Positions 887-20,133 of a stretch of DNA of 20,133 bases are shown one piece after another. This stretch comes from a virus (lineage: Duplodnaviria > Heunggongvirae > Uroviricota > Caudoviricetes): the IMG/VR virus record IMGVR_UViG_2778261637_000004. One strand, 5' to 3'. The translations under genes and the position numbers were made by a program. The notes under the pieces are model-generated. The model was not told where the DNA came from. It did no database searches and worked only from the letters and a program-made list of their open reading frames with translations. How positions within the stretch are numbered: position 1 is the stretch's first letter; each line of letters opens with the position of its first letter.

Positions 887-1533
887 TTGTGAGTATCTCA
901 CGTTCTCACTGCGCTGGGCAAAAAAACATCGCAAAATCTGGAGCAGGCACGCAAAACAGAATTGAATGTTGCGGGGAGGAAAAATGCCGCTCTGTTTGAG
1001 TGGGCGGCATTTGTGAAGGCTGAAAAGGAAGAATTGGCGTTACGAGTTATTCTGTTGAATCTGTTTGTAGAGTATTGGCCTCAGTTCCGCATTGTAGCTG
1101 ATTTTTTTCTAATGCGTTTTTTGATTATGTACACCCTTATGTACACGTTTTTTTAAAGCGTTCAGCAATTACGCTGGTGGATGATCACGGATAACCTGAC
1201 ATCTACAGCCGCCTTAAAAAGCTGAACCCGACAAGCATTACTGCGTATCGGGTTCGTTCGCTCTTTCTACTCGTGGCAGATGAGTTTACGGTGTGATTTT
1301 ATCGGGCGAGGGTATTGTATCAGGCATCCCCTTTTCTATGCAGATTTGCATAGTTCCGAATGGTGGCGTTATGGAAGCCTCCCATATCAGCATCATGCCC
1401 ACCAGCGTGAAGTATTTTTTATTTCGCGGGTGTAAAAATTTGACGAGGCGGGCGGTCCCATAAGCAATGGGTTGTAGGGATTTCGATCCCCCCTCCTGAA
1501 TGCAATTTTTCGTATATATATATACAAAACAGT

Positions 1534-1688
1534 GCGGGTTATGCGGGTTACCGGGTTATCTTAGCGTGCTAACTATTTTTTATTCTTTAGTATCAATATG
1601 TTGTAAAATGCACTGTTCATTATTCAAGCATCGCATAACCCGCAAAACATCCCAAATAACCCGCAAACGCCCCAAAATAACCCGCAAA
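1534..1688. repeat. Iteron cluster A: three tandem GCGGGTTAY 9-mers, a ~75 bp AT-rich spacer, then three ATAACCCGCAAA copies at 20-22 bp spacing; putative origin or cis-replication region
   Basis: Tandem copies at 1534-1542, 1543-1551 and 1552-1559 (degenerate). AT-rich spacer 1561-1630. Inverted copies at 1635-1646, 1655-1666 and 1677-1688. No ORF covers the region. Confidence 0.6.
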
Positions 1689-2351
1689 CACATTGCTGAA
1701 AGCAGGGGTGGATAGTTCCACTGGTGCCACAGAACGGCTGAATACGGTAACTGTTGCTGGTGGTCTGTCCTGTTGTCGTTCCAGTCTCATCAAATTGAGA
1801 GGCAAGACAAAGTGCATTTTTGCACTATAGCCAAAGCCTCATAAAACATAGTTACCCCCACAGGTTGGCAAACCATTACCCAACGCAATTAAGTGCGTCA
1901 GAATCGATTACAGCGCGTTCCTGTGGCACGTTGTTGCCGTTCTCAACAGTGAAAGGAGAGCGTAAAAAGCGCATATCTATTACTGTTGAGGGGTGTAGCG
2001 GCATATATCGCGCATATCCACGCCGTTAATCCCGATACCGTCACTGCGCATTGAGATCAACCAGAAGATTAAGATAGTTTTACCTGAAATTATCCAAATA
2101 ATTGTTTTAACTGATTAATTTTTCGAATATCTATTGTTAGGGAATAAATCATCAGATACACCATAAAACGACATCTTTCAGGGTGTAGAAGATGCAAAGC
2201 CGGTACTGAAGAAAAGACAAAGAATATGAATGGCTGGACACACGATGGAAGGATTGTCCATTGAAGGATCAATCCCCATGGTATAAGTATTAATAAAACC
2301 GCGCAGCGGGCTTTTTTATCTGCGGTTTCCCGCCCGGGCGGCGGTGGCATT

Positions 2352-2379
2352 CGTTAAAAACAAGGCCGCGAAAGCGGCC
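2352..2379 (-). terminator. Rho-independent terminator closing the cargo operon
   Basis: GGCCGC-GAAA-GCGGCC hairpin (2364-2379) followed on the minus strand by TTGTTTTT, 10 nt after the stop of the 104-aa gene. Confidence 0.6.
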
Positions 2380-2388
2380 TGTGACATG

Positions 2389-2703
2389 TCACGATAGTTC
2401 CGTTTTGTTGAATTCAATTATATCAAGGTCAGAACTTTCGTAATCCTTACCGAATAAAGCAAAACATATCGCGTCAAGTTCTCTCTTATGTTTGGACGCC
2501 CGATCATAATTACCACCCCAACAGCAAATGAATCCACCAAGTACTGCTGATTCAAAAAGTAATGATGCTGCATCAATATGTCTGAACCAGGAGTCTATAA
2601 GTAAAGCAGAGAGTGATATTAATGTTCCCCACCCGCCAATCCTTCTCCATTTCTCAGCTTCATATTTAAGAGAAGCAATATATTCAATTTTATCTCTCGT
2701 CAT
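2389..2703 (-). CDS. Small predicted membrane protein (104 aa, two hydrophobic segments), AT-rich; last gene of the cargo operon
   Basis: Its ATG overlaps the stop of the upstream 925-aa gene (TGATG), indicating translational coupling. Hydrophobic stretches IGGWGTLISLSALLIDSWF and ASLLFESAVLGGFICCWGG. About 38% GC against a GC-rich neighbourhood. Confidence 0.6.
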   Translation of the reverse strand: MTRDKIEYIASLKYEAEKWRRIGGWGTLISLSALLIDSWFRHIDAASLLFESAVLGGFICCWGGNYDRASKHKRELDAICFALFGKDYESSDLDIIEFNKTELS

Positions 2704-5480
2704 CAGTTCCCCACCGCCTTTCCAAAATCCGGTGCTCTACGTGGCGCAATAGCACCCGGTTCCCACCAACTCGTTATGTCGAACTCCCGTTGCGCGCGGT
2801 CCCTTACTCGATCATTGTAACCAGGGTTTGCCATCTCCTGAAGTTGTTGCAATATCAGGTGATTGGTTATCGCTTTCGCATACCACAGGTTTGCGAATGG
2901 AGTGATCATGCGGGCTGTTTTCAGTGCATCGGCACCGAATGATGTTTCTTCACCCTGTAGAGCCTTCTGTGGGTTAGTAATCAGTAATTTTGTTAACTGC
3001 TCTGCAAAGCTCAACACAGGGCCACCCATAGTGGCACCGATGCTGGAGCCATATTGCGTATGGTCCTGGAAAATAAAATCACCGTAGATACCGAACGAAC
3101 CACCTTTCAGTAGAGCCTGAACCCATGTGGTTGGTTTTGTCATATCCAGCGGGTCATTACCATTTAACAAACTGTTCATCTGGATCGCAAACATACCAGC
3201 AAGAGTTGTTCCCCCGATATATGAGGCCAGAAATTTAATGGCCGGAACGGTGTCCAAATCCCGTGTTCTGTTAACAAGTTGCCGAAATCCAGCAAATGGG
3301 GTTGTTTTGAAGAGCATGAAGCTCTTCATTAACTCGCCAGCATCATCACGGGCATATGTATCAATACCCGTAGCGGTGGTCACAGCATTGGTCATCTCAC
3401 CGTGCGTAATTCCCAGCAATTTCTGGGCTGCTTCAGCGCGTGCATTACGAATCATGCGCGTGATGGTCTGCTCAGCCTCAGCGTCGAATGCTTCTTTCAT
3501 CCGTTTCAGGCGTTCTGGAGGGAGATCTCCAAGGGCTGCCAGTGCCTTTTCACTCCCGGCACGAATCCGGGCAATACGGTCTGCCATAATGTCGGCGATT
3601 ACGTTATCGGGCACAGCGTAAATCGCGTCTGGCGTCATCCCCATATGCCCGGCAGTAGTCATCGGCCTGAGTTCTGCCGCTGCCATGATGGCCCAGTCCT
3701 CATTGCTCCATCCCTTGTTAGCCAGAATGGTTTTATCGGTTCCTTTTATATCGTCCAGCGTCTTAAATTTTCTGGTCAGCTCGCCAATATTTTTGTACAT
3801 CAGGAGACCAAACGACGCTTTGTTTGCGCGGTCCATAGCGATCAGCCCGGACCACTTCAGTGTCTTCTCTGCGAACCAGCCAGTTATGCCGCGAGACAAG
3901 TCAAACCCGCCCATTTTCGAAACCACAGCAGCATGTGAATCCACCAGCAGACCGAGTTCAGCATTCGCCTTTTTGGCATCTCCACTAAACAGGTTTTTGA
4001 TAGTGTTAACGGAAAGCCGCATTCCACCACGGGTAAAGCCCAGCGCCTGCGCATTTGCCCGCATAATTGCCTGGTCGCTGGTTGCTGTCAGTACGCTGGT
4101 GCCAAGCATGGCGCTGGTCATCAGGTTACGCAGACCACCAACTGCTGAAGAGAACACACTCGATGAAGCGACACCATTTAGGCCAGCCATTGAGTTGAAC
4201 ATACGGGCAACTAATTTGGCCTCATCCTCCATTTCTTTTTTGCGTTTCCCGCCTGTTACTGCGCGCTTATAGATGCGATCCAGTACCAGGGAAAAGTTTC
4301 TTTCGGCGTCCGGACCAAAGGCTTTAACGACGCCCAAATCCCTGGATGATGATTGCAGGTGCGACATCATCACCCCCACCAGCGGCTGCTGAGTGTATCG
4401 CTCCATATAGGCGAAGTGTGACTGCGCATCCTTGAACGCCATCACCCTGTGCTGAGAACCACGGCTCTTTATTCCTCCGGCTCCCATAAATGTACCAGGC
4501 TCAATTTTGTTTGCCCCATCAGTGGCCTTCGTTTCAAAGATCGCTTCCAGTGCCTGACGGTACTCGACGTCATTCATAATGCTGCCGTCAGGATTAACGT
4601 AATTGCTGCGATCCTGCGTGTTGTAAGCGTCATCAACCCATTTCTGGCGGGCAAACTCAATCGGTGGCTGGCGACCTGAAAGACGTGCTGTAGCTTGCTC
4701 TGCCACTGGTAACGATGCCAGCCATTCTTCGCGCCCGGCATTGCGAATAAGGTCAGCATCATCCACATATGGCGTATGCCAGTCTTCTCGCAGGCCTATG
4801 TCAAAGCCGTTGTCGTTCATCTCATGACGAACACGGCCTGTTACATCCTTCCAAATCTGTGCAATTTTCTTCGCCAGGGGATTACCGGTATCTTCGCCAT
4901 AAATTTCTTTCAGGATCTGGAGTTGTGCAGACTTTGCCGCCTGCCTGTCGAATACACTCCGAAACCGCTGCTCTCCAAGCGCCCTGCTCTGCTCGAAGAA
5001 TTTGCGGACGTCATCACCTGCTTTTAGAAGTTCAGCACTGAGCTGACGGGACCAGTCCTGATATGCCCCAATTGCAAGCTCTTCAGCAGAAGTAACGGAG
5101 ATATCAGCTTTGTCTCTCGATCGTCGGCCAGCAAAAATAAACTGCTGCAAATTAACAGGTGTCTGCTGATCAGGCGGGATGTTAGCATCGAGAGTGTCAG
5201 TAATTTTACTGATGGCGATCGCATTCTGGGCAACACGCTGTCTTTTCTTGTACACATCATGAACCACACGCTGGCGTACCAGTTCTGCTGCATCCATGTA
5301 TGTTTGAGCATCAGGAATACCACTTTTGCCTTCTTTTGCATTCTTTCTGTGCACATGCTGCACAGCTTCTTTGATACGATCTTCAATATTTTTCAGCTCA
5401 TCAGCCTTTGGCTGGCGACCAAGTGTCTGCGCAATAGCTTCAACACATGCCTGTTTCATTATGGGTTCCTCAAGAAGCAC
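2703..5480 (-). CDS. Large hypothetical protein (~918-925 aa), Gly/Ala/Ser/Thr-rich with hydrophobic glycine-rich segments; cargo operon gene 3
   Basis: Long uninterrupted ORF. The track start is a GTG at 5480; the more likely start is the ATG at 5459 (MKQACVEAIAQ) preceded by GAGGAA. No Walker A or other recognisable catalytic motif. Segments such as GTSVLTATSDQAIMRANAQALGFTRGGM and GGTTLAGMFAIQMNSLLNG resemble phage structural or ejection-protein composition. Confidence 0.85.
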   Translation of the reverse strand: MLLEEPIMKQACVEAIAQTLGRQPKADELKNIEDRIKEAVQHVHRKNAKEGKSGIPDAQTYMDAAELVRQRVVHDVYKKRQRVAQNAIAISKITDTLDANIPPDQQTPVNLQQFIFAGRRSRDKADISVTSAEELAIGAYQDWSRQLSAELLKAGDDVRKFFEQSRALGEQRFRSVFDRQAAKSAQLQILKEIYGEDTGNPLAKKIAQIWKDVTGRVRHEMNDNGFDIGLREDWHTPYVDDADLIRNAGREEWLASLPVAEQATARLSGRQPPIEFARQKWVDDAYNTQDRSNYVNPDGSIMNDVEYRQALEAIFETKATDGANKIEPGTFMGAGGIKSRGSQHRVMAFKDAQSHFAYMERYTQQPLVGVMMSHLQSSSRDLGVVKAFGPDAERNFSLVLDRIYKRAVTGGKRKKEMEDEAKLVARMFNSMAGLNGVASSSVFSSAVGGLRNLMTSAMLGTSVLTATSDQAIMRANAQALGFTRGGMRLSVNTIKNLFSGDAKKANAELGLLVDSHAAVVSKMGGFDLSRGITGWFAEKTLKWSGLIAMDRANKASFGLLMYKNIGELTRKFKTLDDIKGTDKTILANKGWSNEDWAIMAAAELRPMTTAGHMGMTPDAIYAVPDNVIADIMADRIARIRAGSEKALAALGDLPPERLKRMKEAFDAEAEQTITRMIRNARAEAAQKLLGITHGEMTNAVTTATGIDTYARDDAGELMKSFMLFKTTPFAGFRQLVNRTRDLDTVPAIKFLASYIGGTTLAGMFAIQMNSLLNGNDPLDMTKPTTWVQALLKGGSFGIYGDFIFQDHTQYGSSIGATMGGPVLSFAEQLTKLLITNPQKALQGEETSFGADALKTARMITPFANLWYAKAITNHLILQQLQEMANPGYNDRVRDRAQREFDITSWWEPGAIAPRRAPDFGKAVGN

Positions 5481-5487
5481 GCTGCCG

Positions 5488-7512
5488 CTACAGAATAAAC
5501 CTTCGATTCGTTCTGGACTGTCTTAATCTGTTCATCCAACTCAGCCAGGAGATCAGAAAGTTTTGTCGGGTTTCCGGGTGAGCTATAGTCAGCTCAGGAT
5601 TGGCAACAGCCATGTCCCTGGCAGCCATAAGGTCATAGCTGTTGGATGAGAGAACCTGCCCTGTATCTGGATCAACGCTGACGTCCCCTCTGTGTTCACC
5701 AGCCGATGAGAAAGCACTTTCAGCACGAGGGACAGGCGATTCACTAATTGGCTCTGATGATGTTTCATATCTGACACCATTTTCTTCAAAAACCTTTTGT
5801 ATTTCATGGTATTGCTCTTGGTAAGTATCAGATGTATCTGATCGCAATGGACCATCAAGCCCTCGCGCCATCCCCCCAACATTTACAGGCTGACCATCAT
5901 TAAGTTGCCTGTATGCTTCATCCATGGCGTCAACATGGCTGTTGATGCTCTCATTGCTGGTGTGAAGCACTGGTGACGATTCAATATCGTAATGAAGCCC
6001 CTCATTCAAAATGTGGGCTGCATCAATATCGCTTGGTTTTATTCTTTCCCTCGCCCGGATACCAAAAACTTTTTCTACTGCGGCTTCCAGTTTCATATTG
6101 CGAAGACGCATACTTACGAGTAACCGTAACTGCTCAGGTGTAACGGTTCCAACCTGAATACCACTGTATCTGAATATATAGGCTTTAAAACCTGAAATAA
6201 TTTTTTCCCATGACGAAACGCTTGTCTTTAGAGATGGATTTACTGCATGTGCGGCAACTTCTTCAGCGTATAACCACTCAGGATATGTTTCAGGGTACTC
6301 ACCCCTTTTCTTATATTCATAATATTGTGACATCCCATATGCAAATTCAGGATAGTCAGAATGCTTGTTTGCAGATTTAAGTACAGCATTAGCTAGCTTT
6401 CTGGCCTTCCAGTCAGGGTAATGGCGCTGCTCAAGATGAAGCGCCTCATGATGAAGGGTTTCTAACAGTTCTTCATGGTCTTTTAATCCATTAATATTTA
6501 TTCTTATTATTGGTTCTTTTCCAGAAGCTACTGTCACATGACCTTTATTCAGAAGTATTTCTCCATCACTATTTTTTATTGCTGGTTCATTAATAAGTTC
6601 TATTACTCCTGAATCAGATAAATCACGAACCATTGACTCAATGTTACCATCAGGAGATTGCTGATAATGTTCACCAAAAGTTGATTTTATTTCTTCTGCA
6701 GAAATGTTCGACTCTGTACCATCATGGTTATTATGGGTAGTCAGGTGATGAACGCCACCAAAGACCCCGCCTAAAACGGCATCGACTAACATCGCCTGAC
6801 CGTCAAATACCCGGTACTGTTTTGCCATCTCCGTGTAGCCTTTTTCCTCCAGTGTTGCACCGACAGAGTAACGGTTCAGTCCACCGAATCCGGTGTTGAT
6901 TGCCACACCTGAGGCAATGCGCGTTGCCAGTGTGGTGCCGACGGCAGCGGGTAAGGCCATACCCACAGCATTGAAAAGGCTCTGCTGCGTTGCCAGGTTA
7001 CGCGCCGTAGCCTCATCTACTCCCTTCCCTTTAAAATCCTGATAGGACTGCTCATACGTAGAACCGAAGGCTGTAGCAGCGCCGATGAGTGGGCCGCCAA
7101 ACATAGTTGTTCCGATTGCAGGAACAAATTTACCAAGCTCATTTAATACCTCAGCCGCCATTCCCTGGCTGCCTGCATCAGGCTTCACATAGCTGCGGGC
7201 ATCCTGTAACTGTTTTCCGATCGTGTCGTATGTATCATTCAGTGTTTTGTCAGCATCAGGGAACATCTCCCGAAAAATATTAACAGTCGGTGCCACGTCT
7301 GCGGTAAATGCCGGATCGCTAATCAGGCGCTTGCTGAATCCGACGGCAGACTGCGCGAGACCGAGAGCCCCCTCCGCTACGCCGCTCAAAAGTGCAGTAC
7401 CTGAACCCTGGAAGGGAGTCGGATCGTAGTCTTCTGGCCTTGCTGGGTTGGCAACTGTTTTGTCGTCAATCCATGCCTGACCTTCTGGAGCCAAAGAAAA
7501 AACATCAGACAT
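5488..7512 (-). CDS. Large hypothetical protein (674 aa) with an embedded AT-rich segment carrying an HExxH(x4)H zincin-like motif; cargo operon gene 2
   Basis: Its ATG overlaps the stop of the 843-aa gene (TAATG). HEALHLEQRH occupies residues 355-364 (nt ~6421-6450). Roughly nt 6170-6760 are 27-35% GC, against about 55-60% in the flanking parts of the same gene. Confidence 0.85.
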   Translation of the reverse strand: MSDVFSLAPEGQAWIDDKTVANPARPEDYDPTPFQGSGTALLSGVAEGALGLAQSAVGFSKRLISDPAFTADVAPTVNIFREMFPDADKTLNDTYDTIGKQLQDARSYVKPDAGSQGMAAEVLNELGKFVPAIGTTMFGGPLIGAATAFGSTYEQSYQDFKGKGVDEATARNLATQQSLFNAVGMALPAAVGTTLATRIASGVAINTGFGGLNRYSVGATLEEKGYTEMAKQYRVFDGQAMLVDAVLGGVFGGVHHLTTHNNHDGTESNISAEEIKSTFGEHYQQSPDGNIESMVRDLSDSGVIELINEPAIKNSDGEILLNKGHVTVASGKEPIIRININGLKDHEELLETLHHEALHLEQRHYPDWKARKLANAVLKSANKHSDYPEFAYGMSQYYEYKKRGEYPETYPEWLYAEEVAAHAVNPSLKTSVSSWEKIISGFKAYIFRYSGIQVGTVTPEQLRLLVSMRLRNMKLEAAVEKVFGIRARERIKPSDIDAAHILNEGLHYDIESSPVLHTSNESINSHVDAMDEAYRQLNDGQPVNVGGMARGLDGPLRSDTSDTYQEQYHEIQKVFEENGVRYETSSEPISESPVPRAESAFSSAGEHRGDVSVDPDTGQVLSSNSYDLMAARDMAVANPELTIAHPETRQNFLISWLSWMNRLRQSRTNRRFIL

Positions 7513-10043
7513 TATTCAACCCTCACGACAATAGCTTTATTGGTTCTGGGATCTGTTGCCCAGCGTCCGCTACCATTTACAAGCCGATACCGGTTATTGC
7601 CGATATTAACTGGCGTGAAATTTGACACTGCATTTACGTTAAGTCCGGCATCTTTCAGTGCTTGTTTCGCAGATGTGGTATAGCGATCTTTGAAAGTAGA
7701 TTTATCCATGCCGAAAGGCATTACAACGTCGCCGCCATTAAAACCATTGTATATACCGCCAGTAGCATACTTCACGGCATCAGCTACAATGTCTGTATCA
7801 GGCATACTGGTTCTTACCGTAGATGCATCACCAGATTGATAAGCTATTCCTGCATAAGCGGCTTTGAAAAGGCTATAACTGATCTGGCGTAACTGCGGGT
7901 TACGGGCAAATGCATTACCTACCTGTTCGTCGAAAGCGTCTTTCATCTTATCTTCGCTCGGCAACTGTACCGGAGTTATGCCCGCATTCTTCATGGCCTT
8001 CGTCGGATTCAGTAGTTGGTCGCCGGAAAGAATAACCTTTGCAACGTCGTACTTGTTCATCGTCGGCTTATACCCGATGAACTGACTATATGGGATCGTC
8101 GGCTTGGTGTTGTCGTACTGGTTATCCGGCGTGCCCAGCAGCAGCGCAGAATAGGCTGTTGCCGCACTGTTCGGAGCAATTACAGATGCCACCTGCCGTA
8201 TTGCTGGCGCAGGCAGCTTCTCCCCCATGCTCTGCAACAGTTTAATTGTCTGGTCAACGTTCTGAGTGCCGCGCACCTGCTGTGCCAGCGCAGCCGCCTC
8301 TTCACTGTTGAGGATTGGGGCATTAATTCCCAACGCGCGTAAGCTTTCCTGCGACGAGAAACGGTTAGCCACCTCGGCAGTGATGTCGTCAGGGTTGTTG
8401 CTGGTGATCGGCTTATAGGCTCCGATTTCCACCGCTGCACTAAACGGATTATTCTGCCTCTGGGTTATTACCTTCGTGGCTGCCGCCGATACCCGGTCGA
8501 ATAACTCCGCACGAGACGCATACCCCTCCCCTGTTTCACCAGTATCCGGGCGCAATTGCTCAACATATGCGGTAATGCTGCTTGTCGGCATGTTGCGGAA
8601 AGAGCCTATATACTGTCCGGCGATCTGCAAATTTCTGAACTCGATATATCGCAGGTTTCCTTCTCTGACACCATAAGCTGCAATGAACTCATCCTCACCA
8701 GGTGGGTTAGGAAATTCAACGCCACGCATAAACGCAGCCGTTGCATCGCGAACCCTGCTATCGAGCATCGTTCTATATTCAGCCTGCTGCTGTCTGGCTA
8801 ATGCATCCGTCTGTCGCAACACGCTGGCCTGATCTGATTCACTTAAAGCATCGAACCAGGCTACACCGGTATAACGTTTATTTTTTGTCGGTAGCTGAGA
8901 AAGCCCCAGTGCGGCACTAACGCCAGCGGCCAATTGCTGATCACTGTACGGCTGACTGCCTTGCTCATGATGAATAATTGCTTTGCACAGAGATTTCAGT
9001 GTGTCAGGATTTGATGCGTCAAGCGGCTGGTCAGGAGTTACACCGAGCTGAGCACATACTGCCCGTATATAAGCATCAGTTTTATTATCATCACTGGCCG
9101 GTGCCCAGCGATTAATTATTTCGCTGATGGTGTCATAACCCTGACGCTGATACGACAGCAAATTGCGACCAAGCGCGCGAATACCGTGTTCAGGGGTTTC
9201 GAATTTGGCAAAGCGACCATCATCACCAGTCTGCCCAACCCACGGATTAGTTTTGCTGTATTCAAGATTGCCGGGGTTATTGTTGCGTATACCGCGGGTA
9301 CGATCGGAAGAGCCACTATCTGCTACAGCACGGCGAGATCCAGCAGCAGTATCGCTTAACTCTCCGTTTTGCTGTCTTACCTGAAGATAGTTTGCTCCAA
9401 TAGCATTTTGAGCAGTTGCTTTTGCTGTTGCTTCTTTAAACTCGATTTTCTTGGCCTGGATTTGCTCGTCGCTCCAGCCATGCGCAATACCGTAATCCTC
9501 AATTTGCTGGAAAGTTTGCGTATTAGCCAATATGTATGCTGCGTTGTTGCCATATAATGCTGAGGCATTTTTACCATTATTCAGCAGTGTCGCCTGAAAC
9601 TGGCCTTCTTCGTAGGCATTTATTTGCCCTATCTCGTACCTCCCGGCCTGCGTAGCGAACTGAATACGCTGCTGCTGCGCCTGCTGCATGAAAGCATTAC
9701 GAGCCTGTTCATCCGGCAGCGACATAGCCAGTTGTTCGACCTGAGCATCAAACTGCTGTGTATACTCATGGCCTTTTCCAATAGCATTTTTCCCTTTCAG
9801 ATTAAGCAATCCTGTTTCAGGATTATTCAGCAGATCACTGCCTGTCTGACTGAGTTTAAGGGATGCCTCCTGAACCAAGGCAATATTGGCGCGCTGTTTT
9901 GCCTGACCAAGAACATCAATTGCCTCTGTCCCTGCCCGAACAAAAGCATCACCAATACCTGGCTGAGAAAACGTCTGCAAGCCTGCTGACTGAACTCCAC
10001 GGCTCTCAACCTGACGTCCGGATACTGTTGGTACGACTGGCAT
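7512..10043 (-). CDS. Large hypothetical protein (843 aa), Gln/Ala-rich N-terminal region and a conserved-looking GIRNNNPGNLEYS...RWAP block; cargo operon gene 1
   Basis: Long ORF with ATG at 10043 and an AGGGGG Shine-Dalgarno upstream. The block at residues 251-315 (nt ~9099-9293) looks like a conserved domain core. GKNAIGKG is not a canonical Walker A. Confidence 0.85.
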   Translation of the reverse strand: MPVVPTVSGRQVESRGVQSAGLQTFSQPGIGDAFVRAGTEAIDVLGQAKQRANIALVQEASLKLSQTGSDLLNNPETGLLNLKGKNAIGKGHEYTQQFDAQVEQLAMSLPDEQARNAFMQQAQQQRIQFATQAGRYEIGQINAYEEGQFQATLLNNGKNASALYGNNAAYILANTQTFQQIEDYGIAHGWSDEQIQAKKIEFKEATAKATAQNAIGANYLQVRQQNGELSDTAAGSRRAVADSGSSDRTRGIRNNNPGNLEYSKTNPWVGQTGDDGRFAKFETPEHGIRALGRNLLSYQRQGYDTISEIINRWAPASDDNKTDAYIRAVCAQLGVTPDQPLDASNPDTLKSLCKAIIHHEQGSQPYSDQQLAAGVSAALGLSQLPTKNKRYTGVAWFDALSESDQASVLRQTDALARQQQAEYRTMLDSRVRDATAAFMRGVEFPNPPGEDEFIAAYGVREGNLRYIEFRNLQIAGQYIGSFRNMPTSSITAYVEQLRPDTGETGEGYASRAELFDRVSAAATKVITQRQNNPFSAAVEIGAYKPITSNNPDDITAEVANRFSSQESLRALGINAPILNSEEAAALAQQVRGTQNVDQTIKLLQSMGEKLPAPAIRQVASVIAPNSAATAYSALLLGTPDNQYDNTKPTIPYSQFIGYKPTMNKYDVAKVILSGDQLLNPTKAMKNAGITPVQLPSEDKMKDAFDEQVGNAFARNPQLRQISYSLFKAAYAGIAYQSGDASTVRTSMPDTDIVADAVKYATGGIYNGFNGGDVVMPFGMDKSTFKDRYTTSAKQALKDAGLNVNAVSNFTPVNIGNNRYRLVNGSGRWATDPRTNKAIVVRVE

Positions 10044-12069: not shown

Positions 12070-12132
12070 GCTGTTTGTTCTCCGGTTTTAACGTGATAGT
12101 TACGCTTGTTTACACTCTTACAGTGAAATTTT

Positions 12133-12255
12133 GCGGGTTACAATCGCACATTTGCGGGTTATAACTGCTGTTTTGCGGGTTACGTGCGGGTTATTGATTT
12201 CCTTTTTAATCATGCAGTTAATTAACTTATGCACAGGATAACCCGCATAACCCGC
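12133..12255. repeat. Iteron cluster B: four GCGGGTTAY copies (21 bp spacing), a ~43 bp AT-rich spacer, then two tandem ATAACCCGC 9-mers; putative origin
   Basis: Copies at 12133-12141, 12154-12162, 12175-12183 and 12186-12194; inverted tandem copies at 12238-12246 and 12247-12255. Sits in the 210 bp gap between the primase stop and the ssb start. The arrangement is the reverse complement of cluster A. Confidence 0.6.
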
Positions 12256-12279
12256 AACTTTTTACCTCACACAGGGAAG

Positions 12280-14406
12280 TTAATCTTCTGCTTCAGGCTG
12301 GAACATCAGCACGTAAAAAATATGCTGCTTCCCGCCAATCCTGCCGAGCGCCTTTTTCTTGTAACGGCGGTCGCCTCCCGCTTCCAGCATTCCGGCAGCA
12401 CTCAACGCGCGGGCAAAGTGAGACGGATTAAATCCCTGTGCGATCTCCCCCTCAAACACATGCGGAAACGTGTAAAAACGGAACTCATCATCTTCATTTC
12501 TGATACTCCCCTTTCTGTATCCGGCAAGGTCTTTAATCGGTAAATCACGCTCATCGCTGTTTGGATAAGGAAGGTATCGACTGAACCCGAACGACGACAA
12601 AAACGCCTCAGCCTGTTCAACCATCTGTTTAAATTCCCTGTTGCCCGTGCCGAATTCCTTCACCCAGGCATTAAAGTTATGCTGAACTGCATCACGGCAC
12701 GCCTGAACATCCCAGCCTGTAACATGACCGGAAAGCACAAGCGCGGCCTCCAGTACGGCGAATCTTTCCCCCACGCGGTGAACCTGCTCGCCGTAGCTCT
12801 CCGGTATCAGGTTGCGCCACCGCTCGCGACATGCCCTTACCGCGTCCTTTGCCTCCTGCTGGTGGCCTGCCAGCCATTTAACCCACTCACGACCTGCCGC
12901 CCCGTGATTTTCTGTCCAGGCATCTTTTAACGCGTCTGCGTGCGCCTTTCCGGTGCTGTATTCGTGAAACTGCGAGGCCTTTTCCATCGGCACGTTAAGC
13001 AGACGGACAAGCTGCCCCGCTTTAATTTTTATCCCTTCCGTTTTGAGGAATGTTTCAACGTCCATTTCTCCGGTGCTGATTGCCACCGTGCGCCAGTGTT
13101 TTATCTCCCTGTTGCCGCCGTCCTTCGCCCCCTGTAATTTCCCGGAACCGTTAAACAGCGTATAGGCTGACGTGGACACCTCCCGCGCGTTTCCGGCCTG
13201 GCCTATTTCATCCAGGGGTAACAGCCCGTCATTATGTGCTTCGGCCTCGTTGGCGATACCTAACGCCGTTCCGTACCAGGTCAGCCGTTGCGCGTCCGGC
13301 TCTCCCCATAAACTTGATGCAATGTTCTGTGTGGTGGTTTTACCTGCTGATGATTGCTCAAAAAGATGAACCCCGAAGCCGTCAGCACCCACCAGCCCGA
13401 TTAATGGTGCGGATAGCGATACCGCCACACCCAGCATCATGGACGGATTACCACCAGCCAGCCGCGCCACGGTATCGCGCCAGCCCTCCGCTGTTCCCGC
13501 CACGGAATAGCCATTAACTGCGGCAGTTTTTCCGGTAAACAGGATGGGTTTCTCTGATTCACCAATGACCGAACCATCCGGCATGATGTACGCACCAAAA
13601 TGCCAGCCCGTTGTAGTGCTTAGCTGCCATTCCTCATGACTTCCGCTTAACTGCATCCAGTCAGCCAGGATGGCTCTGTATTTGCCGTTGGTCGTCACGT
13701 TAAGACCGTGGTCTTTCAGCAACCGCCAGCCGTCACGGTCACCAATGCCTCCGCACGGGACCGCCATTGTAATGACCTCATGGTTTGCTGGTTTTTTCCA
13801 GCGCATCACGCGGTAATGCTCTTTGCCGATTGTTCCTGTTCCCAGTAGTTCAAGCGGAGAACATAACCACGTCTCAGGCCGGATAATTTCGCCTGACTGC
13901 TTGTCCACTTTGGGCGTTACCCAGAAAACACCATCGACGCGACTTTCAACACGAGGCTTTAATTCGTCATCATAATTTCCGGTGAAATTTGTCTTTGCCG
14001 GAAGGTTGATCACCAGACTGTTACCGCGTTCCGCATCATCCTTCAGTCCAGCCATGCGCGGTGTCCAGTCCTCCGGCTGCTGGTCAACAAAGCTGCGGTA
14101 GCAACGCGCCTCCTTCACACCCGCCACTGCAAGCAGTGTCGCTATCTGTGTAAGGTGCTGCTCTGATATTTCACCAGCACGATAAACGCGCACGTAATAG
14201 CGCCCTTTGTCGATGATTTGCGTGTCTGCCAGACTCGCCAGTTGTTCCGGTCCAAGAATAACTGGATGTGTATCATCTGCCGCAATATGCTTTCCGGCCC
14301 ATTCGCTCCACTCTTTCGCATGTGCCCAGGCATCACTACCCGCAAAGATAATCACCTCCGTCATTTTGTCTTTCGGCTGGTGCTTTAAATTCGGTGCGCG
14401 TTTCAT
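12280..14406 (-). CDS. Replication initiator: primase/helicase-type protein with a P-loop NTPase domain
   Basis: 708 aa. Walker A-like LFEQSSAGKTTTQ and an acidic LLPLDEIG stretch (Walker B-like). ATGA start/stop overlap with the upstream 100-aa gene. Sits beside the iterons and ssb, as in P4-alpha-like and PICI replicons. Confidence 0.8.
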   Translation of the reverse strand: MKRAPNLKHQPKDKMTEVIIFAGSDAWAHAKEWSEWAGKHIAADDTHPVILGPEQLASLADTQIIDKGRYYVRVYRAGEISEQHLTQIATLLAVAGVKEARCYRSFVDQQPEDWTPRMAGLKDDAERGNSLVINLPAKTNFTGNYDDELKPRVESRVDGVFWVTPKVDKQSGEIIRPETWLCSPLELLGTGTIGKEHYRVMRWKKPANHEVITMAVPCGGIGDRDGWRLLKDHGLNVTTNGKYRAILADWMQLSGSHEEWQLSTTTGWHFGAYIMPDGSVIGESEKPILFTGKTAAVNGYSVAGTAEGWRDTVARLAGGNPSMMLGVAVSLSAPLIGLVGADGFGVHLFEQSSAGKTTTQNIASSLWGEPDAQRLTWYGTALGIANEAEAHNDGLLPLDEIGQAGNAREVSTSAYTLFNGSGKLQGAKDGGNREIKHWRTVAISTGEMDVETFLKTEGIKIKAGQLVRLLNVPMEKASQFHEYSTGKAHADALKDAWTENHGAAGREWVKWLAGHQQEAKDAVRACRERWRNLIPESYGEQVHRVGERFAVLEAALVLSGHVTGWDVQACRDAVQHNFNAWVKEFGTGNREFKQMVEQAEAFLSSFGFSRYLPYPNSDERDLPIKDLAGYRKGSIRNEDDEFRFYTFPHVFEGEIAQGFNPSHFARALSAAGMLEAGGDRRYKKKALGRIGGKQHIFYVLMFQPEAED

Positions 14407-14707: not shown

Positions 14708-14965
14708 TTATTTCCCGGTGTGGGGTTCTTCTTTATATTTATGGGCTAACAAATCTGGTAATTGCCTGTATTTATCCTCGGCAATATATTCAGAATAATC
14801 GACAGCACTGTTCAGTATATCTAACGCCGTTTCATGCTCCAGATTCGAAACTATAAGGAACGTTGCTACTTTTAGCATATTCGCGATATGCAAAAGAGCA
14901 TCAATTTCATTTTTTGGCGCTTCGCTGAATTTTTGCTCCAGAAGAATAAATCGTTCATCACGCAT
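14708..14965 (-). CDS. Hypothetical protein (85 aa)
   Basis: ATG at 14965 preceded by AGGAGGA; acidic, helical-looking sequence. Confidence 0.6.
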   Translation of the reverse strand: MRDERFILLEQKFSEAPKNEIDALLHIANMLKVATFLIVSNLEHETALDILNSAVDYSEYIAEDKYRQLPDLLAHKYKEEPHTGK

Positions 14966-15161
14966 AGTGTTCCTCCTGACGGATGCGGGCAGTAAATACC
15001 ATCACGCAGCCAGCCGGGGATTGCTGACGGGCTTCCTGTTCGCTGGTGGCCACGATGTGAATCACGCGCGGTTGTGCCGTACTCAGGGCGATAAAACGCC
15101 AGATGTATTTATTCAGGTTGTGCGAGTCCCGCCCTTGCGGGTGTGTGGTATGATTTCTCAT
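14958..15161 (-). CDS. Hypothetical small protein (67 aa), first gene of the leftward replication operon
   Basis: This is the C-terminal 67 codons of the 415-aa track ORF, starting at an ATG (15161) with GAGGT upstream; it overlaps the next gene by 8 nt. The rest of the 415-aa ORF conflicts with a well-supported plus-strand gene. Confidence 0.45.
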   Translation of the reverse strand: MRNHTTHPQGRDSHNLNKYIWRFIALSTAQPRVIHIVATSEQEARQQSPAGCVMVFTARIRQEEHYA

Positions 15162-15257
15162 AGCTACCTCGATACTTCTGCTATCGTTGGTGGTTAGAAG
15201 CCCGGTTAGTGTTAGCGCACTGCCGGGTTTCGTCGTTTCTGCACCTTGCATCAACAA

Positions 15258-15336
15258 GGTGTAAGTAACTTTATTTATAGGTGGCTTACATGTCAATGCT
15301 TTTATGTAAGACTTTTTATGTGTATATTGTCTTACA
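15258..15336. promoter_or_regulatory. Divergent promoter/operator region with nested inverted repeats
   Basis: GTGTAAG (15258-15264) pairs with CTTACAC (15330-15336), and CTTACAT (15284-15290) with ATGTAAG (15303-15309). TATATT -10-like element at 15322-15327. Lies between the leftward replication operon and the rightward RHH-like gene. Confidence 0.45.
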
Positions 15337-15357
15337 CTTTCGTTAAGAGGATTACAG

Positions 15358-15663
15358 ATGGCTACAGGTTCAAAAAACGCAAAATCACAATCGCTGACAG
15401 CTCGGATCCCGCATGATGTTATTGAAGGCATGGAATCCGTAAAACTGGACGGCGAAAGCAACGCCGGATTCATAGTAACCGCCATGCGTGGTGAGATCGC
15501 CCGCCGCCAGGCAGAAGGAAGCGGAGAAAATCCCCTCGTGTCTTCACTGGATGCCTTAGTTAAGGTCGAACAAATCGGCATCAAGGCAGCGGAGGAAATC
15601 GGGCAACTCGTAGCCGTCGCTCGTGAAGAACTCCAGCGCCGGGAGGCCAAAGAGCAGGAATAG
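15358..15663 (+). CDS. Small DNA-binding protein, ribbon-helix-helix-like (MobC/CopG-like); candidate island regulator
   Basis: ATG preceded by AAGAGGA. SLTARIPHDVIEGMESVKLDGESNAGFIVTAMRGEIARR is consistent with an RHH N-terminus followed by a helical C-terminal region. Confidence 0.6.
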   Translation: MATGSKNAKSQSLTARIPHDVIEGMESVKLDGESNAGFIVTAMRGEIARRQAEGSGENPLVSSLDALVKVEQIGIKAAEEIGQLVAVAREELQRREAKEQE

Positions 15664-15720
15664 CCACTATCAGCGCCATAGTTTGAGGAACGCAGGCGCA
15701 TTGCTTTACAGGGCAGCACC

Positions 15721-15900
15721 ATGAGCGACACAGAATCAACAAAAACACCATCACCAACTCGTAAGAGACGACGCAAAAATATAGCGCATGAACATGAATC
15801 AGAAAGATTCGCACCTTGTTCGTTTGCTCTTGAGAAATTCCTTAAAGAGCACAGGAAAAAGCTCTCGTTGCAAACCCTGGAACGAACCAAATCTGACTGA
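15721..15900 (+). CDS. Small basic protein (59 aa), not in the ORF track
   Basis: Hand translation gives MSDTESTKTPSPTRKRRRKNIAHEHESERFAPCSFALEKFLKEHRKKLSLQTLERTKSD. Followed by a plus-strand terminator; the ribosome-binding site is weak. Confidence 0.35.
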   Translation: MSDTESTKTPSPTRKRRRKNIAHEHESERFAPCSFALEKFLKEHRKKLSLQTLERTKSD

Positions 15901-15967
15901 TCACATTGCCCACCAGCTGCAAATCTGGCATTGTTGGCGATGCGTTTGATTTCCTTTGTTCCCACTG

Positions 15968-15995
15968 GCGACCTCTCCCGGTCGCCTTTGTTTTG
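15968..15995 (+). terminator. Rho-independent terminator for the rightward small operon
   Basis: GGCGACC-TCTCCC-GGTCGCC hairpin followed by TTTGTTTT. Confidence 0.6.
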
Positions 15996-16044
15996 CCAGT
16001 TATCCAGCAACGGGGCGCTTTTTCTTTCTGTAACGTTCGGATCG

Positions 16045-16602
16045 TTACACATTGTTTTCACCCTCCAGAAAATCAGGCTGATATTTACGCCATAGCGCCC
16101 GCTCTTCTCGTTCCAGTGCATCTTTTGCCTCTTTGCATTGCTGTAACCTGTAACCGCGTTTGCTGGCTTCCTGTTGATAGGCAGCCTGGCGTTTACTGAA
16201 ATCATTCAGCATGGCAAACGGAACACCATAACCCCCCGTTTTGCGGATTGAAGGGATAACCTCGCGGAATACCCAGTTACTGAAACGGTGCGCAAATGTG
16301 CCTGGTGTGGAAGCTTTACGGCTGCGGGCGATCAGTTTGTAGAAACCTGATTCAGAGACAACATTCCAGCTTCTGGCACCACCACGCTTACCGGAATGCC
16401 CCTCGGTTAAAGCTAGGGTCATTACCTCGTCGTTATCCAGAACTGAAACGGCATCAGTAACATTGCTGATTTCCAGCGCAGCACACACATCAGCGCCAAC
16501 AAACCACGGCTCGCCGTTGATACTCACTATGCGCACCTGAATGTCATCGAATTTAATGACAGAGATTTCAGTGCGCCCGGCATAAAAGACAGGTTTACGC
16601 AT
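16045..16602 (-). CDS. Bro-N domain protein (phage anti-repressor family)
   Basis: 185 aa. IQVRIVSINGEPWFVGADVCAALEISNVTDAV is a typical Bro-N core. 8-nt overlap with the upstream gene. Confidence 0.8.
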   Translation of the reverse strand: MRKPVFYAGRTEISVIKFDDIQVRIVSINGEPWFVGADVCAALEISNVTDAVSVLDNDEVMTLALTEGHSGKRGGARSWNVVSESGFYKLIARSRKASTPGTFAHRFSNWVFREVIPSIRKTGGYGVPFAMLNDFSKRQAAYQQEASKRGYRLQQCKEAKDALEREERALWRKYQPDFLEGENNV

Positions 16603-18864: not shown

Positions 18865-20133
18865 CTATGATAGCTTATGCATTTTCCTGATTGGCGTCAC
18901 GTTGTATTCTTCATTGCGTTCTAGCGCTACCAGCAGATCAGCCCACTGTGCCAGCGCAGCTTTACGCTCATCAAAATACTGATGGCGGTTATAAATCCCC
19001 TCCACACCCTTAATGCGATGATTGAGGCATCGTTCCGCTACGACAGGATCAACACCCAATGCTGCTAAATGAGTACGTGCGGTACGCCGGAAGTCGTGAA
19101 TCGTGAAATTAGGCACATCCGGCATTTCGGCGCGAACCTTAGCCAGTGCTACGGGTAAAGTGCTTTCCTGAATATGTGGGATCATTCTGTTTTGCATCTT
19201 CCTGGCTGGAAGCACCCATGCGCTATTACATGAAAAGGTGTGTAGCTCTCTCAACCATTCAACGGCAGGAGAAGGTAGAGGTATATCAATAGGGTCTCCG
19301 TTTTTGCTGCGTTCTTCCGGCAAATGCCATACCGCACCATCTAAATCAAACTCTTCCCATCGTGCGGCGCATAACTCCATCTTACGAACGCATAGTGCCA
19401 GCAATAGCTTAAATGTCAGTTCGTTCTGGCGGCTGAATCCTTTGGCTTTACGCATTGCCTGAAAAAATTGGATTAATTCGTCACGGTTCAGCCAGCGATC
19501 ACGAGATAATTCTTTCCCACCAGCATCTGATACTTCGAAAGCTGAGCAGGGATTTATCTCCAGAGCGTGGCGTTTTATCCCATAGTCAAAGATACGGCGT
19601 GTCCAGCGTAATACATCTGTTGCTATCGTTGGTGCTCCTCGGTCAACGATACCTTTCAACATGTCGTCAATGTGGCGTGGCTTAACGTCCTCTACCTTCA
19701 TATGCCCAATGCAGGGGTTAATATCCTTATCAATTCTCCGGCGAAGGATATCGGGATGTTTCCATCTCGGAAGTATCTGTCGCTCGAAGTATTCGGCGGC
19801 CAGATCTGAAACGCGCATGGCGTTTTTCTCAGCCTCCATTTTTGCCAGTGCTTCAGCTTTTCGTTCCTGTTTTTCTGCTGCTACGTCATAGCCAAGAGCA
19901 ACTCTGGCTGACAGCTCTTTTGCTGTTTCTCTGGCTTTTGATAGTGACAGTTCGGAGTAAGAGCCGATAACCATAGCCCGCTGTTTTCCTGCGAGCTTAT
20001 ATCGGAATCGCCAGAACGGGACTGTGTAGTTTTTGGGGTAGCAAATATAAAGGCCGTTGCCGTCTGCCTTGCCATCAAATCTGTCTCCCGCCTTTATCCA
20101 TGCGCGGATCTGCATATCTGTGAGTTTTGGCAT
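18865..20133 (-). CDS. Tyrosine recombinase, P4-type integrase with an N-terminal arm-binding (DUF4102-like) domain
   Basis: 422 aa. The N-terminus (LTDMQIRAWIK...DGNGLYICY...WRFRY) matches the P4-integrase arm domain. The C-terminus has HDFRRTARTHLAALG and a GIYNRHQY tyrosine region. The start codon is the final three bases of the window. Confidence 0.9.
   Translation of the reverse strand: MPKLTDMQIRAWIKAGDRFDGKADGNGLYICYPKNYTVPFWRFRYKLAGKQRAMVIGSYSELSLSKARETAKELSARVALGYDVAAEKQERKAEALAKMEAEKNAMRVSDLAAEYFERQILPRWKHPDILRRRIDKDINPCIGHMKVEDVKPRHIDDMLKGIVDRGAPTIATDVLRWTRRIFDYGIKRHALEINPCSAFEVSDAGGKELSRDRWLNRDELIQFFQAMRKAKGFSRQNELTFKLLLALCVRKMELCAARWEEFDLDGAVWHLPEERSKNGDPIDIPLPSPAVEWLRELHTFSCNSAWVLPARKMQNRMIPHIQESTLPVALAKVRAEMPDVPNFTIHDFRRTARTHLAALGVDPVVAERCLNHRIKGVEGIYNRHQYFDERKAALAQWADLLVALERNEEYNVTPIRKMHKLS

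Follow-up and report, generated by a model that had tools for sequence, protein, structure and literature searches.

The non-coding end of a phage satellite that lies farthest from its integrase gene (int), at positions 1064-2388 of a 20,133-nucleotide stretch of Escherichia coli DNA (IMG/VR record IMGVR_UViG_2778261637_000004; hereafter the window), probably carries three cis-acting elements: the P'-arm of the attachment (att) site, a cos packaging site and one of two mirror-image modules of a replication origin. The satellite is of the phage-inducible chromosomal island (PICI) type and lies in the 3' end of yicC. Its coordinates, homologies, architecture and the co-variation described below were directly observed; protein binding, DNA cleavage and origin firing would follow the paradigms of P4, of lambda, and of PICIs and the Staphylococcus aureus pathogenicity islands (SaPIs). 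All three elements are of known kinds and form an ordinary set of satellite cis-elements, and the only mildly unusual point is that in Escherichia the halves of the origin are split by accessory or cargo genes. The original prediction, which described 1100-2388 as a gene-poor region with palindromes and direct repeats, overlooked the cos site and the iteron module of origin type, the two elements with the most structure.

The origin modules stand out through a repeated motif. Allowing one mismatch, TAACCCGCA occurs 14 times in the window against 4.4 occurrences expected, in two distant clusters at 1533-1686 (module B) and 12132-12256 (module A) plus three scattered sites. The two modules have the same internal architecture in mirror image. 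Described PICI origins lie directly 3' of rep and have an A+T-rich region with an iteron set on either side, the two sets being oppositely oriented (PMC6092414). Module B has the opposed sets around an A+T-rich centre (the window as a whole is 52% A+T) and lies 10.45 kb away from the presumed initiator gene, whereas module A lies directly 3' of it. This initiator is a primase-helicase (Pfam DUF927; PHROG DNA primase) whose helicase part matches PDB entry 8tch, annotated "Pathogenicity island protein" (E = 2e-14). In SaPIs, the iterons are read by the C-terminal winged-helix domain of Rep, a self-loading helicase (PMC9371898).

How general is this arrangement? A search with the primase returned 12 loci, one from each of 12 further species or genome bins (57-79% identity), and 14 loci entered the origin comparison. 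The module pattern (- -)AT(+ + + +) / (- -)AT(+ + +) was found in 14/14. Ten non-Escherichia genomes have the modules directly next to each other, and in an eleventh (L009) about 170 nt separate them; in Escherichia the distance between them is 2.2 kb (E. albertii), 6.1 kb (L004, a second E. coli island) and 10.45 kb (the window). The split architecture is also kept, with 8.4-10.8 kb between the modules, in 11 IMG/VR satellites that carry the same cos. Five of the 14 loci have a consensus for integration host factor (IHF) in their origin spacers. The linker with the (TA)6 run that precedes module B is kept in L004, L006, L007 and L016, which include Winslowiella and Tenebrionibacter relatives. 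In Winslowiella (L007) it lies about 25 nt upstream of a gene start; it may act as a -10 element or as an unwinding element. A search for att repeats in three non-Escherichia relatives, bearing on whether module B lies at the island end there too, found none.

Six iteron types occur in the 14 loci (AACCCGC, AACCCAC, GAACCAC, GAACCAA, GAACCGR and GGGAYAA), and the type is always identical in both modules of one element. It varies together with the primase: the last 37 residues of the protein are 81% identical between pairs that share an iteron type and 38% identical between pairs that do not, and the closest primase pairs with different iterons are those whose iterons are one base apart. Between the window and L004, the iteron columns of module B are identical at 53/53 positions and the other columns at 80/105 (p = 1.5e-5); for module A the figures are 54/54 and 56/84 (p = 1.3e-7). 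E. albertii (L006) offers a natural iteron swap beside a conserved cos block: its cos block is identical to that of the window at 131/148 positions, and the adjoining 160 nt, which contain its own GGGACA iterons, at only 77/160.

These comparisons bear on a different explanation of the array at 1533-1688. It directly adjoins cos, its inverted repeat sets surround an IHF consensus much like R3-I1-R2-R1 of lambda, and E. coli PICIs with a cosB of their own are known (PMC6739421). The array might thus be a packaging-specificity element, with cosB-like R sites for a helper TerS or an Rpp-like protein and an IHF-induced bend as in lambda. We regard this as very improbable on five grounds: (i) the same iterons recur in the mirror-image module directly 3' of the primase gene; (ii) 11 relatives have module B adjoining or near module A, and in none of these did blastn detect cos-block homology beside it; (iii) the iteron type follows the primase lineage and not the cos block; (iv) satellites of the same cos family with other replicases have no such iterons; and (v) relative to cosN, the array lies opposite terS, where by analogy with lambda cosQ would be. 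Taken together, the origin comparisons therefore tie the 1533-1688 array to the replicase rather than to packaging.

The cos site itself was recognised by homology. The 83 nt at 1414-1496 are 87% identical to a region of the Stx2e phage phiP27 that is annotated "cos-site" in GenBank, and the homology extends over both flanks of cosN, about 30 nt on the left and 42 nt on the right. In a phiP27-like prophage, the cos sequence lies between the genes for HNH and a "P27 family" TerS; next come those for TerL, portal, HK97-type protease and capsid. The same packaging module is present in the related phage SfI, for which mapping on virion DNA gave a 10-nt cohesive end, TGCCCGCCCC (PMC3636060). When IMG/VR was scanned for exact matches to the pattern of this cos, 24 loci were returned. 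Thirteen of them are without iterons, 11 with a phiP27-type flank and 2 with a different flank. Four loci of the phage-type class (L026, L028, L043 and L046) have exactly the cosN variant of the window, embedded in 45 nt of near-identity. Among 5426 complete E. coli genomes, 567 contain cos-like sequences of this family.

Satellites with three other replication modules have the same cos family at their int-distal end: a P4-alpha type (L005), a RepA helicase type (L020) and the capsid-forming PICI (cf-PICI) of E. coli SMS-3-5 (L023, NC_010498.1 963343-977406). This last island lies beside thiM, encodes major capsid protein, protease, portal, HNH, P27-family TerS and TerL, and ends with a 93-residue gene and cos, the left half of which matches window 1397-1458. 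The same 93-residue gene precedes cos in L005 and L020, and both of these also have a DUF1441 gene there. Carriage of helper cos sites is a known property of PICIs, and likewise of P4 (PMC6739421).

Next to the phage homology is a block found in satellites, 1364-1413, whose conservation emerged from an alignment of the cos regions and a profile over the 24 IMG/VR loci, and which is shared with the SMS-3-5 cf-PICI. Because it is on the side that cosB occupies in lambda, and by analogy with the PICI EcCICFT073, which has a distinct cosB of its own (PMC6739421), this block may be a satellite-specific cosB or recognition element.

Where does the island end? By gene content and homology, the window is E. 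coli chromosome, with dinD followed by a PICI-type phage satellite of about 19 kb inserted in the last 21 bp of yicC. The two genes are adjacent in E. coli K-12, and K-12 homology to the window ends at 1063, inside a copy of the yicC 3' end. The whole 840-2400 stretch is present in 22 complete E. coli genomes (96-98% identity among the 20 matches listed). In the best match, NZ_CP178648 (L001), the order is dinD, the island of about 19 kb, int and yicC, and the island is 97% identical to that of the window. We defined the att core by a three-way comparison of K-12 attB (TTATTCGATGTTCTGAATCTG) with the L001 junctions on the dinD side (TTATTCAATGTTCTGGATCTG) and on the int side (TTATTCGATATTCTGGATCTG), from which it follows that the core is the last 21 bp of yicC. 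A tRNA scan found no tRNA; the island is therefore not tRNA-targeted.

The original prediction had suspected an island boundary with its att core and integrase arm sites in 1100-2388, and had proposed to look for an att repeat beyond int. The core is indeed repeated at both L001 junctions, and candidate arm sites lie within the region. The copy in the window is at 1047-1063, which puts the core, and with it the island edge, 37 nt to the left of 1100-2388. By this comparison, 1100-2388 is the int-distal end of the island.

The arm-site candidates are two tandem TTATGTACAC decamers. At the int end of L001 the same TTATGTACAC pair recurs together with two more TGTACA sites, at most 60 nt upstream of int. 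Of the 10 TGTACA sites in the L001 island, six fall in the two att arms (2 at the dinD side, 4 upstream of int), so that one short repeat is present in both arms and rare elsewhere in that island. The integrase has an N-terminal arm-binding domain (PF13356, Arm-DNA-bind_3, E = 1e-19), and in a related 10.8-kb circle (L005) attP is flanked on both sides by a comparable GGTGTAGTTAAT pair. The TTATGTACAC pair thus likely represents arm-type sites to which Int would bind. Segment 1102-1154 is also found in other E. coli genomes, in some of them at positions like this locus.

The remainder of the island agrees with this assignment. It encodes an integrase with an arm-binding domain, an AlpA-type helix-turn-helix protein, AntA, Bro-N, DUF4222, the DUF927 primase-helicase, SSB and ProQ/FinO. 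An int-alpA RNA (Rfam RF02996; 18793-18858, minus strand; 42.5 bits, gathering threshold 35.8) lies between int and the next open reading frame (ORF). As judged from these genes, the organisation is that of Gram-negative PICIs (PMC6092414).

How might the three elements work together? On induction, the island would be excised by Int acting on the core and on the TTATGTACAC arm sites of the P'-arm. The C-terminal domain of the primase-helicase would bind the TAACCCGCA iterons; the protein would then melt the A+T-rich spacer, perhaps with IHF, and load itself as SaPI and PICI Rep proteins do. A helper terminase of the phiP27/SfV type (HK97-like) with its HNH partner would cut island concatemers at GAGGCGGGCG and package the island. 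In most relatives the modules abut right after the primase gene; in Escherichia, accessory and cargo genes separate them, which leaves module B beside cos.

What, then, is module B for? It may be a second origin, a partner of module A over 10 kb, or merely retained. Modules A and B could form one bipartite origin in which the primase assemblies pair and loop out the 10 kb of cargo, as in P4 ori-crr, and on that analogy we hold this to be possible, if doubtful. Were it true, the junction between the halves would be a preferred site of accessory-gene acquisition in this satellite lineage, and replication would start right beside the packaging site. Another explanation is that module B no longer functions and has travelled with cos as a relic of an ancestral double origin, and that module A alone is used. 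Its distance of 10.45 kb from the primase gene, its position amid decayed gene fragments and the degenerate third copy in its 9-bp-spaced set would fit such a relic. We nevertheless think it improbable, since 53/53 iteron positions are conserved against a divergence of 24% in the spacers, the 11 IMG/VR satellites retain the architecture, and module B of E. albertii has the same lineage-specific iteron as its module A. Matching iterons in both E. albertii modules therefore require either continued selection or recent co-transfer.

Several points weigh against our reading of 1064-2388 as P'-arm, cos and origin module. The distance of module B from the primase gene is unlike that of described PICI origins. 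Specificity of the iterons for a cognate initiator is indicated only by their co-variation with the primase C-terminus, which is confounded by phylogeny. The AlphaFold 2 model of that C-terminal domain, with a predicted local distance difference test score of 51, is too poor to define its fold, and a profile search of the domain against PDB gave no match. The cosN of the window is one base off that of phiP27, GGGGCGGGCG. Only one cos-like site is present in the sister genome NZ_CP178648, which therefore shows no sign of a resident helper. The att core copy of the window is 17 nt long, as compared with 21 nt in K-12 and L001, and this 4-nt deletion may impair excision of the window copy. The island also lacks the module of DUF1441 and a small gene that goes with this cos in relatives, and no DUF1441 homologue was found in the window. 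Because of this missing module and the att core deletion, the element may be partly decayed. The DUF1441 protein of the relatives gave no match in a search against PDB in which identity with Rpp was checked.

We compared the island with known satellites and phages. It shares with PICIs of the EcCICFT073 type the series int, alpA, replication gene, ori, accessory genes and a helper-type cos beside att, as well as PerC- and ProQ-type accessory genes (PMC6092414, PMC6739421). It differs from them in its cos, which is of the phiP27/SfV type (HNH-dependent, HK97-like) and not of the lambda/phi80 type, in having no Rpp or DUF1441-like gene, and in an origin made of two mirror-image modules, the second displaced by 10.45 kb to cos. 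Both PMC6092414 and PMC6739421 describe a rep-proximal ori only, with no mirror-image split double origin. With the SaPI Rep/ori system (PMC9371898), the island has in common a helicase domain homologous to 8tch and iterons opposed around an A+T-rich centre; its iterons are longer (9-12 nt versus 5-6 nt), its host is Gram-negative and its module is duplicated as a mirror image. The cos of the phiP27/SfV/SfI/e14 type and of cf-PICIs shares with the window 83 nt of homology that include the 10-nt cohesive end and both flanks, and the left flank is shared with the SMS-3-5 cf-PICI. In the phages, this cos lies between HNH and terS, whereas here it lies between att and the origin module, in an island without a terminase or HNH gene.

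The two distant clusters of one repeat in the window also recall P4. Its ori and crr are reportedly separated cis clusters of one short repeat, one of them beside the replicase gene, presumably bound by the element's own primase-helicase, in an element that uses a helper cos. The iteron is TAACCCGCA here and TGTTCACC in P4; the latter is the P4 type I repeat, bound by P4 alpha. Arrays of TGTTCACC were found only in L005 and not in the window. Further differences are that the replicase is of the DUF927 type here and of the alpha type in P4, as in L005, that each cluster here is a full two-set module with an A+T-rich spacer, contiguous in most relatives, and that the island lacks sid, delta and psu genes. 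L005 itself (NZ_CP148328.1, 10,790 bp) was deposited as a circular plasmid and looks like an excised satellite assembled as such. It has int, alpA, icd, DUF4222, a different primase (annotated "primase-like DNA-binding domain-containing protein"), TGTTCACC iterons, a protease/capsid fusion gene, DUF1441, the 93-residue gene and this cos family.

With these assignments, an unannotated or mis-annotated 1.3 kb becomes a map of cis sites for a satellite family common in E. coli. The likely helper class can be named (phiP27/SfV-type phages, including Stx2e phages), and exact sequences are at hand for packaging and replication tests. The split double origin is a simple natural system in which to ask whether PICI-type origins work as paired modules and whether cargo enters between the halves. 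Coordinates of all features are given in Table 1.

Table 1. Features of the satellite and its flank, in window coordinates.
Feature	Position	Strand	Description
dinD	1-837	minus	left edge of the window
att core, dinD side	1047-1063		TTATTCTGTTGAATCTG; imperfect copy of the last 21 bp of yicC
Two tandem TTATGTACAC decamers	1125-1146	plus	12 bp start to start; candidate integrase arm-type sites
Hairpin with U-tract	1215-1255	minus	-22.8 kcal/mol, z = -4.1; likely intrinsic terminator of leftward transcription, before att
Perfect palindrome, 7-bp arms	1336-1353		kept in L004, L024, L030 and L040
Satellite-conserved block	1364-1413		50 nt; absent from phages; on the cosN side where the phage has terS
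cos site	1414-1496		homologous to the HNH-terS intergenic cos region of phiP27-type phages
Cohesive-end sequence GAGGCGGGCG	1445-1454		10 nt; 9/10 to phiP27 GGGGCGGGCG
Conserved linker	1497-1532		36 nt; (TA)6 at 1513-1524; always adjoins the module B iterons spaced at 9 bp
Module B, first iteron set	1533-1559	minus	two perfect TAACCCGCA and one degenerate copy, 9-bp spacing
Module B, A+T-rich spacer	1562-1631		70 nt, 73% A+T; presumed melting region
IHF consensus TATCAATATGTTG	1591-1603		within the module B spacer
Module B, second iteron set	1635-1688	plus	ATAACCCGCAAA three times, at 1635, 1656 and 1677; 21-bp spacing
Hairpin AGTGCAAAAATGCACT	1811-1826	minus	terminator-like; follows the 93-residue gene in related satellites, orphan here
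Remnant of the 93-residue gene	2004-2051	minus	48 nt, residues 43-58; the gene precedes cos in related PICIs and cf-PICIs
Shared segment	2319-2388		common to many podophages and prophages
Intrinsic terminator of the cargo operon	2363-2380	minus	inside 2319-2388
Module A	12132-12256		mirror image of 1533-1688; pri-ssb intergenic, 24 nt 3' of the primase stop codon
DUF927 primase-helicase	12280-14406	minus	708 residues; presumed iteron-binding initiator
Tyrosine integrase gene	18865-20133	minus	the window stops at the int start codon

Outside the att arm, cos and iterons, the region is, by its sequence matches, gene debris and terminators. The view that it holds no credible ORF stands: the longest within 1100-2388 has at most 86 codons, and the seven longest gave no Pfam or PHROGs match above threshold. 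A 234-residue "hypothetical protein" (WP_187642373.1) annotated by RefSeq and the Prokaryotic Genome Annotation Pipeline at L001 20174-20878, equivalent to window 1013-1717 and running over att core, cos and iterons, is almost certainly spurious, because its frame is broken in the window. The remnant at 2004-2051 has DNA matches in 9 IMG/VR loci, and by tblastn 12-13 of its 16 residues match the proteins of L004, L005 and L020 (E = 2e-6 to 9e-6; 3e-4 in another search). L005 has the same 17-nt hairpin, AGTGCAAAAATGCACTT, unchanged, 21 nt past the stop codon of the 93-residue gene.

The four repeats listed by the original prediction are all present where it had placed them: the ATGTACAC direct repeat (1127-1134 and 1139-1146), the palindrome CTATGCA-gatt-TGCATAG (1336-1353), the (TA)6 run (1513-1524) and the palindrome AGTGCA-tttt-TGCACT (1811-1826). 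We compared the region with 300 dinucleotide shuffles of itself. Perfect palindromes with 6-nt arms number 10 against 4.4 +/- 2.7 (4% of shuffles reach 10), and those with 7-nt arms 3 against 1.1 (12% of shuffles reach 3); the enrichment is marginal, and single palindromes are therefore near chance. Short-range direct repeats of 8-mers number 20 against 0.8, a value attained in 0/300 shuffles, and nearly all of this excess comes from the ATGTACAC pair and the previously unlisted iteron array. As for conservation of the palindromes in related islands, the one at 1336-1353 is kept in some and absent from others: the 144 nt that contain it (1239-1382) are missing from E. albertii L006 and from L019.

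Could the region encode a small regulatory RNA, such as an immunity RNA like P4 CI, as the original prediction had suggested? It is a long non-coding stretch in a satellite, and several of its hairpins fold better than shuffled controls. We find such an RNA scarcely credible. An Rfam scan of the region (gathering threshold and E <= 1) gave no RNA family and only a sub-threshold chance match to a CRISPR direct repeat; a consensus scan for promoters and terminators gave fewer promoter-like sites than the shuffle mean and no promoter paired with a terminator. Neither a curated RNA family nor a promoter and terminator around a conserved structure was thus found in the region. Terminators of neighbouring or decayed genes account for the stable hairpins, two of which are shared with unrelated phages, and conservation within 1100-2388 over the 24 IMG/VR loci is confined to 1364-1760, the cos and iteron block, and to the 2001-2051 gene fragment. 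A candidate plus-strand terminator near 2300 was discarded, its folding being no better than that of shuffled sequence.

The hairpin at 1215-1255 is 86% identical to the rlfB-pmgF intergenic region of phage P1 and is probably a terminator that protects att. The terminator segments 1215-1285 and 2319-2388 are 86-99% identical to unrelated phages (P1 rlfB-pmgF; TL-2011b, phiv142-3 and HEMP4), and such terminator modules appear to move between phage-related elements.

Two observations concern genes elsewhere in the island. At 14958-16205 (minus strand) lies a 415-residue ORF whose C-terminal 90 residues match a PHROG "transcriptional repressor"; in its place L001 has a number of small genes, including Icd-like, and window 15498-15634 does not align to L001. 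Beyond the region analysed, 2703-10043 (minus strand, together with 2389-2703) contains three large cargo genes for proteins of 925, 674 and 843 residues, which have no Pfam match and gave no defence-system match with PADLOC. The 925- and 843-residue proteins have full-length matches to PHROG 684 ("virion structural protein") and PHROG 992 ("head protein / injection transglycosylase"), and the 674-residue protein matches PHROG 1145 over its N-terminal ~270 residues. In a satellite without capsid, tail or terminase genes, these cargo proteins look like internal-virion (ejection) proteins known from podophages such as TL-2011b.

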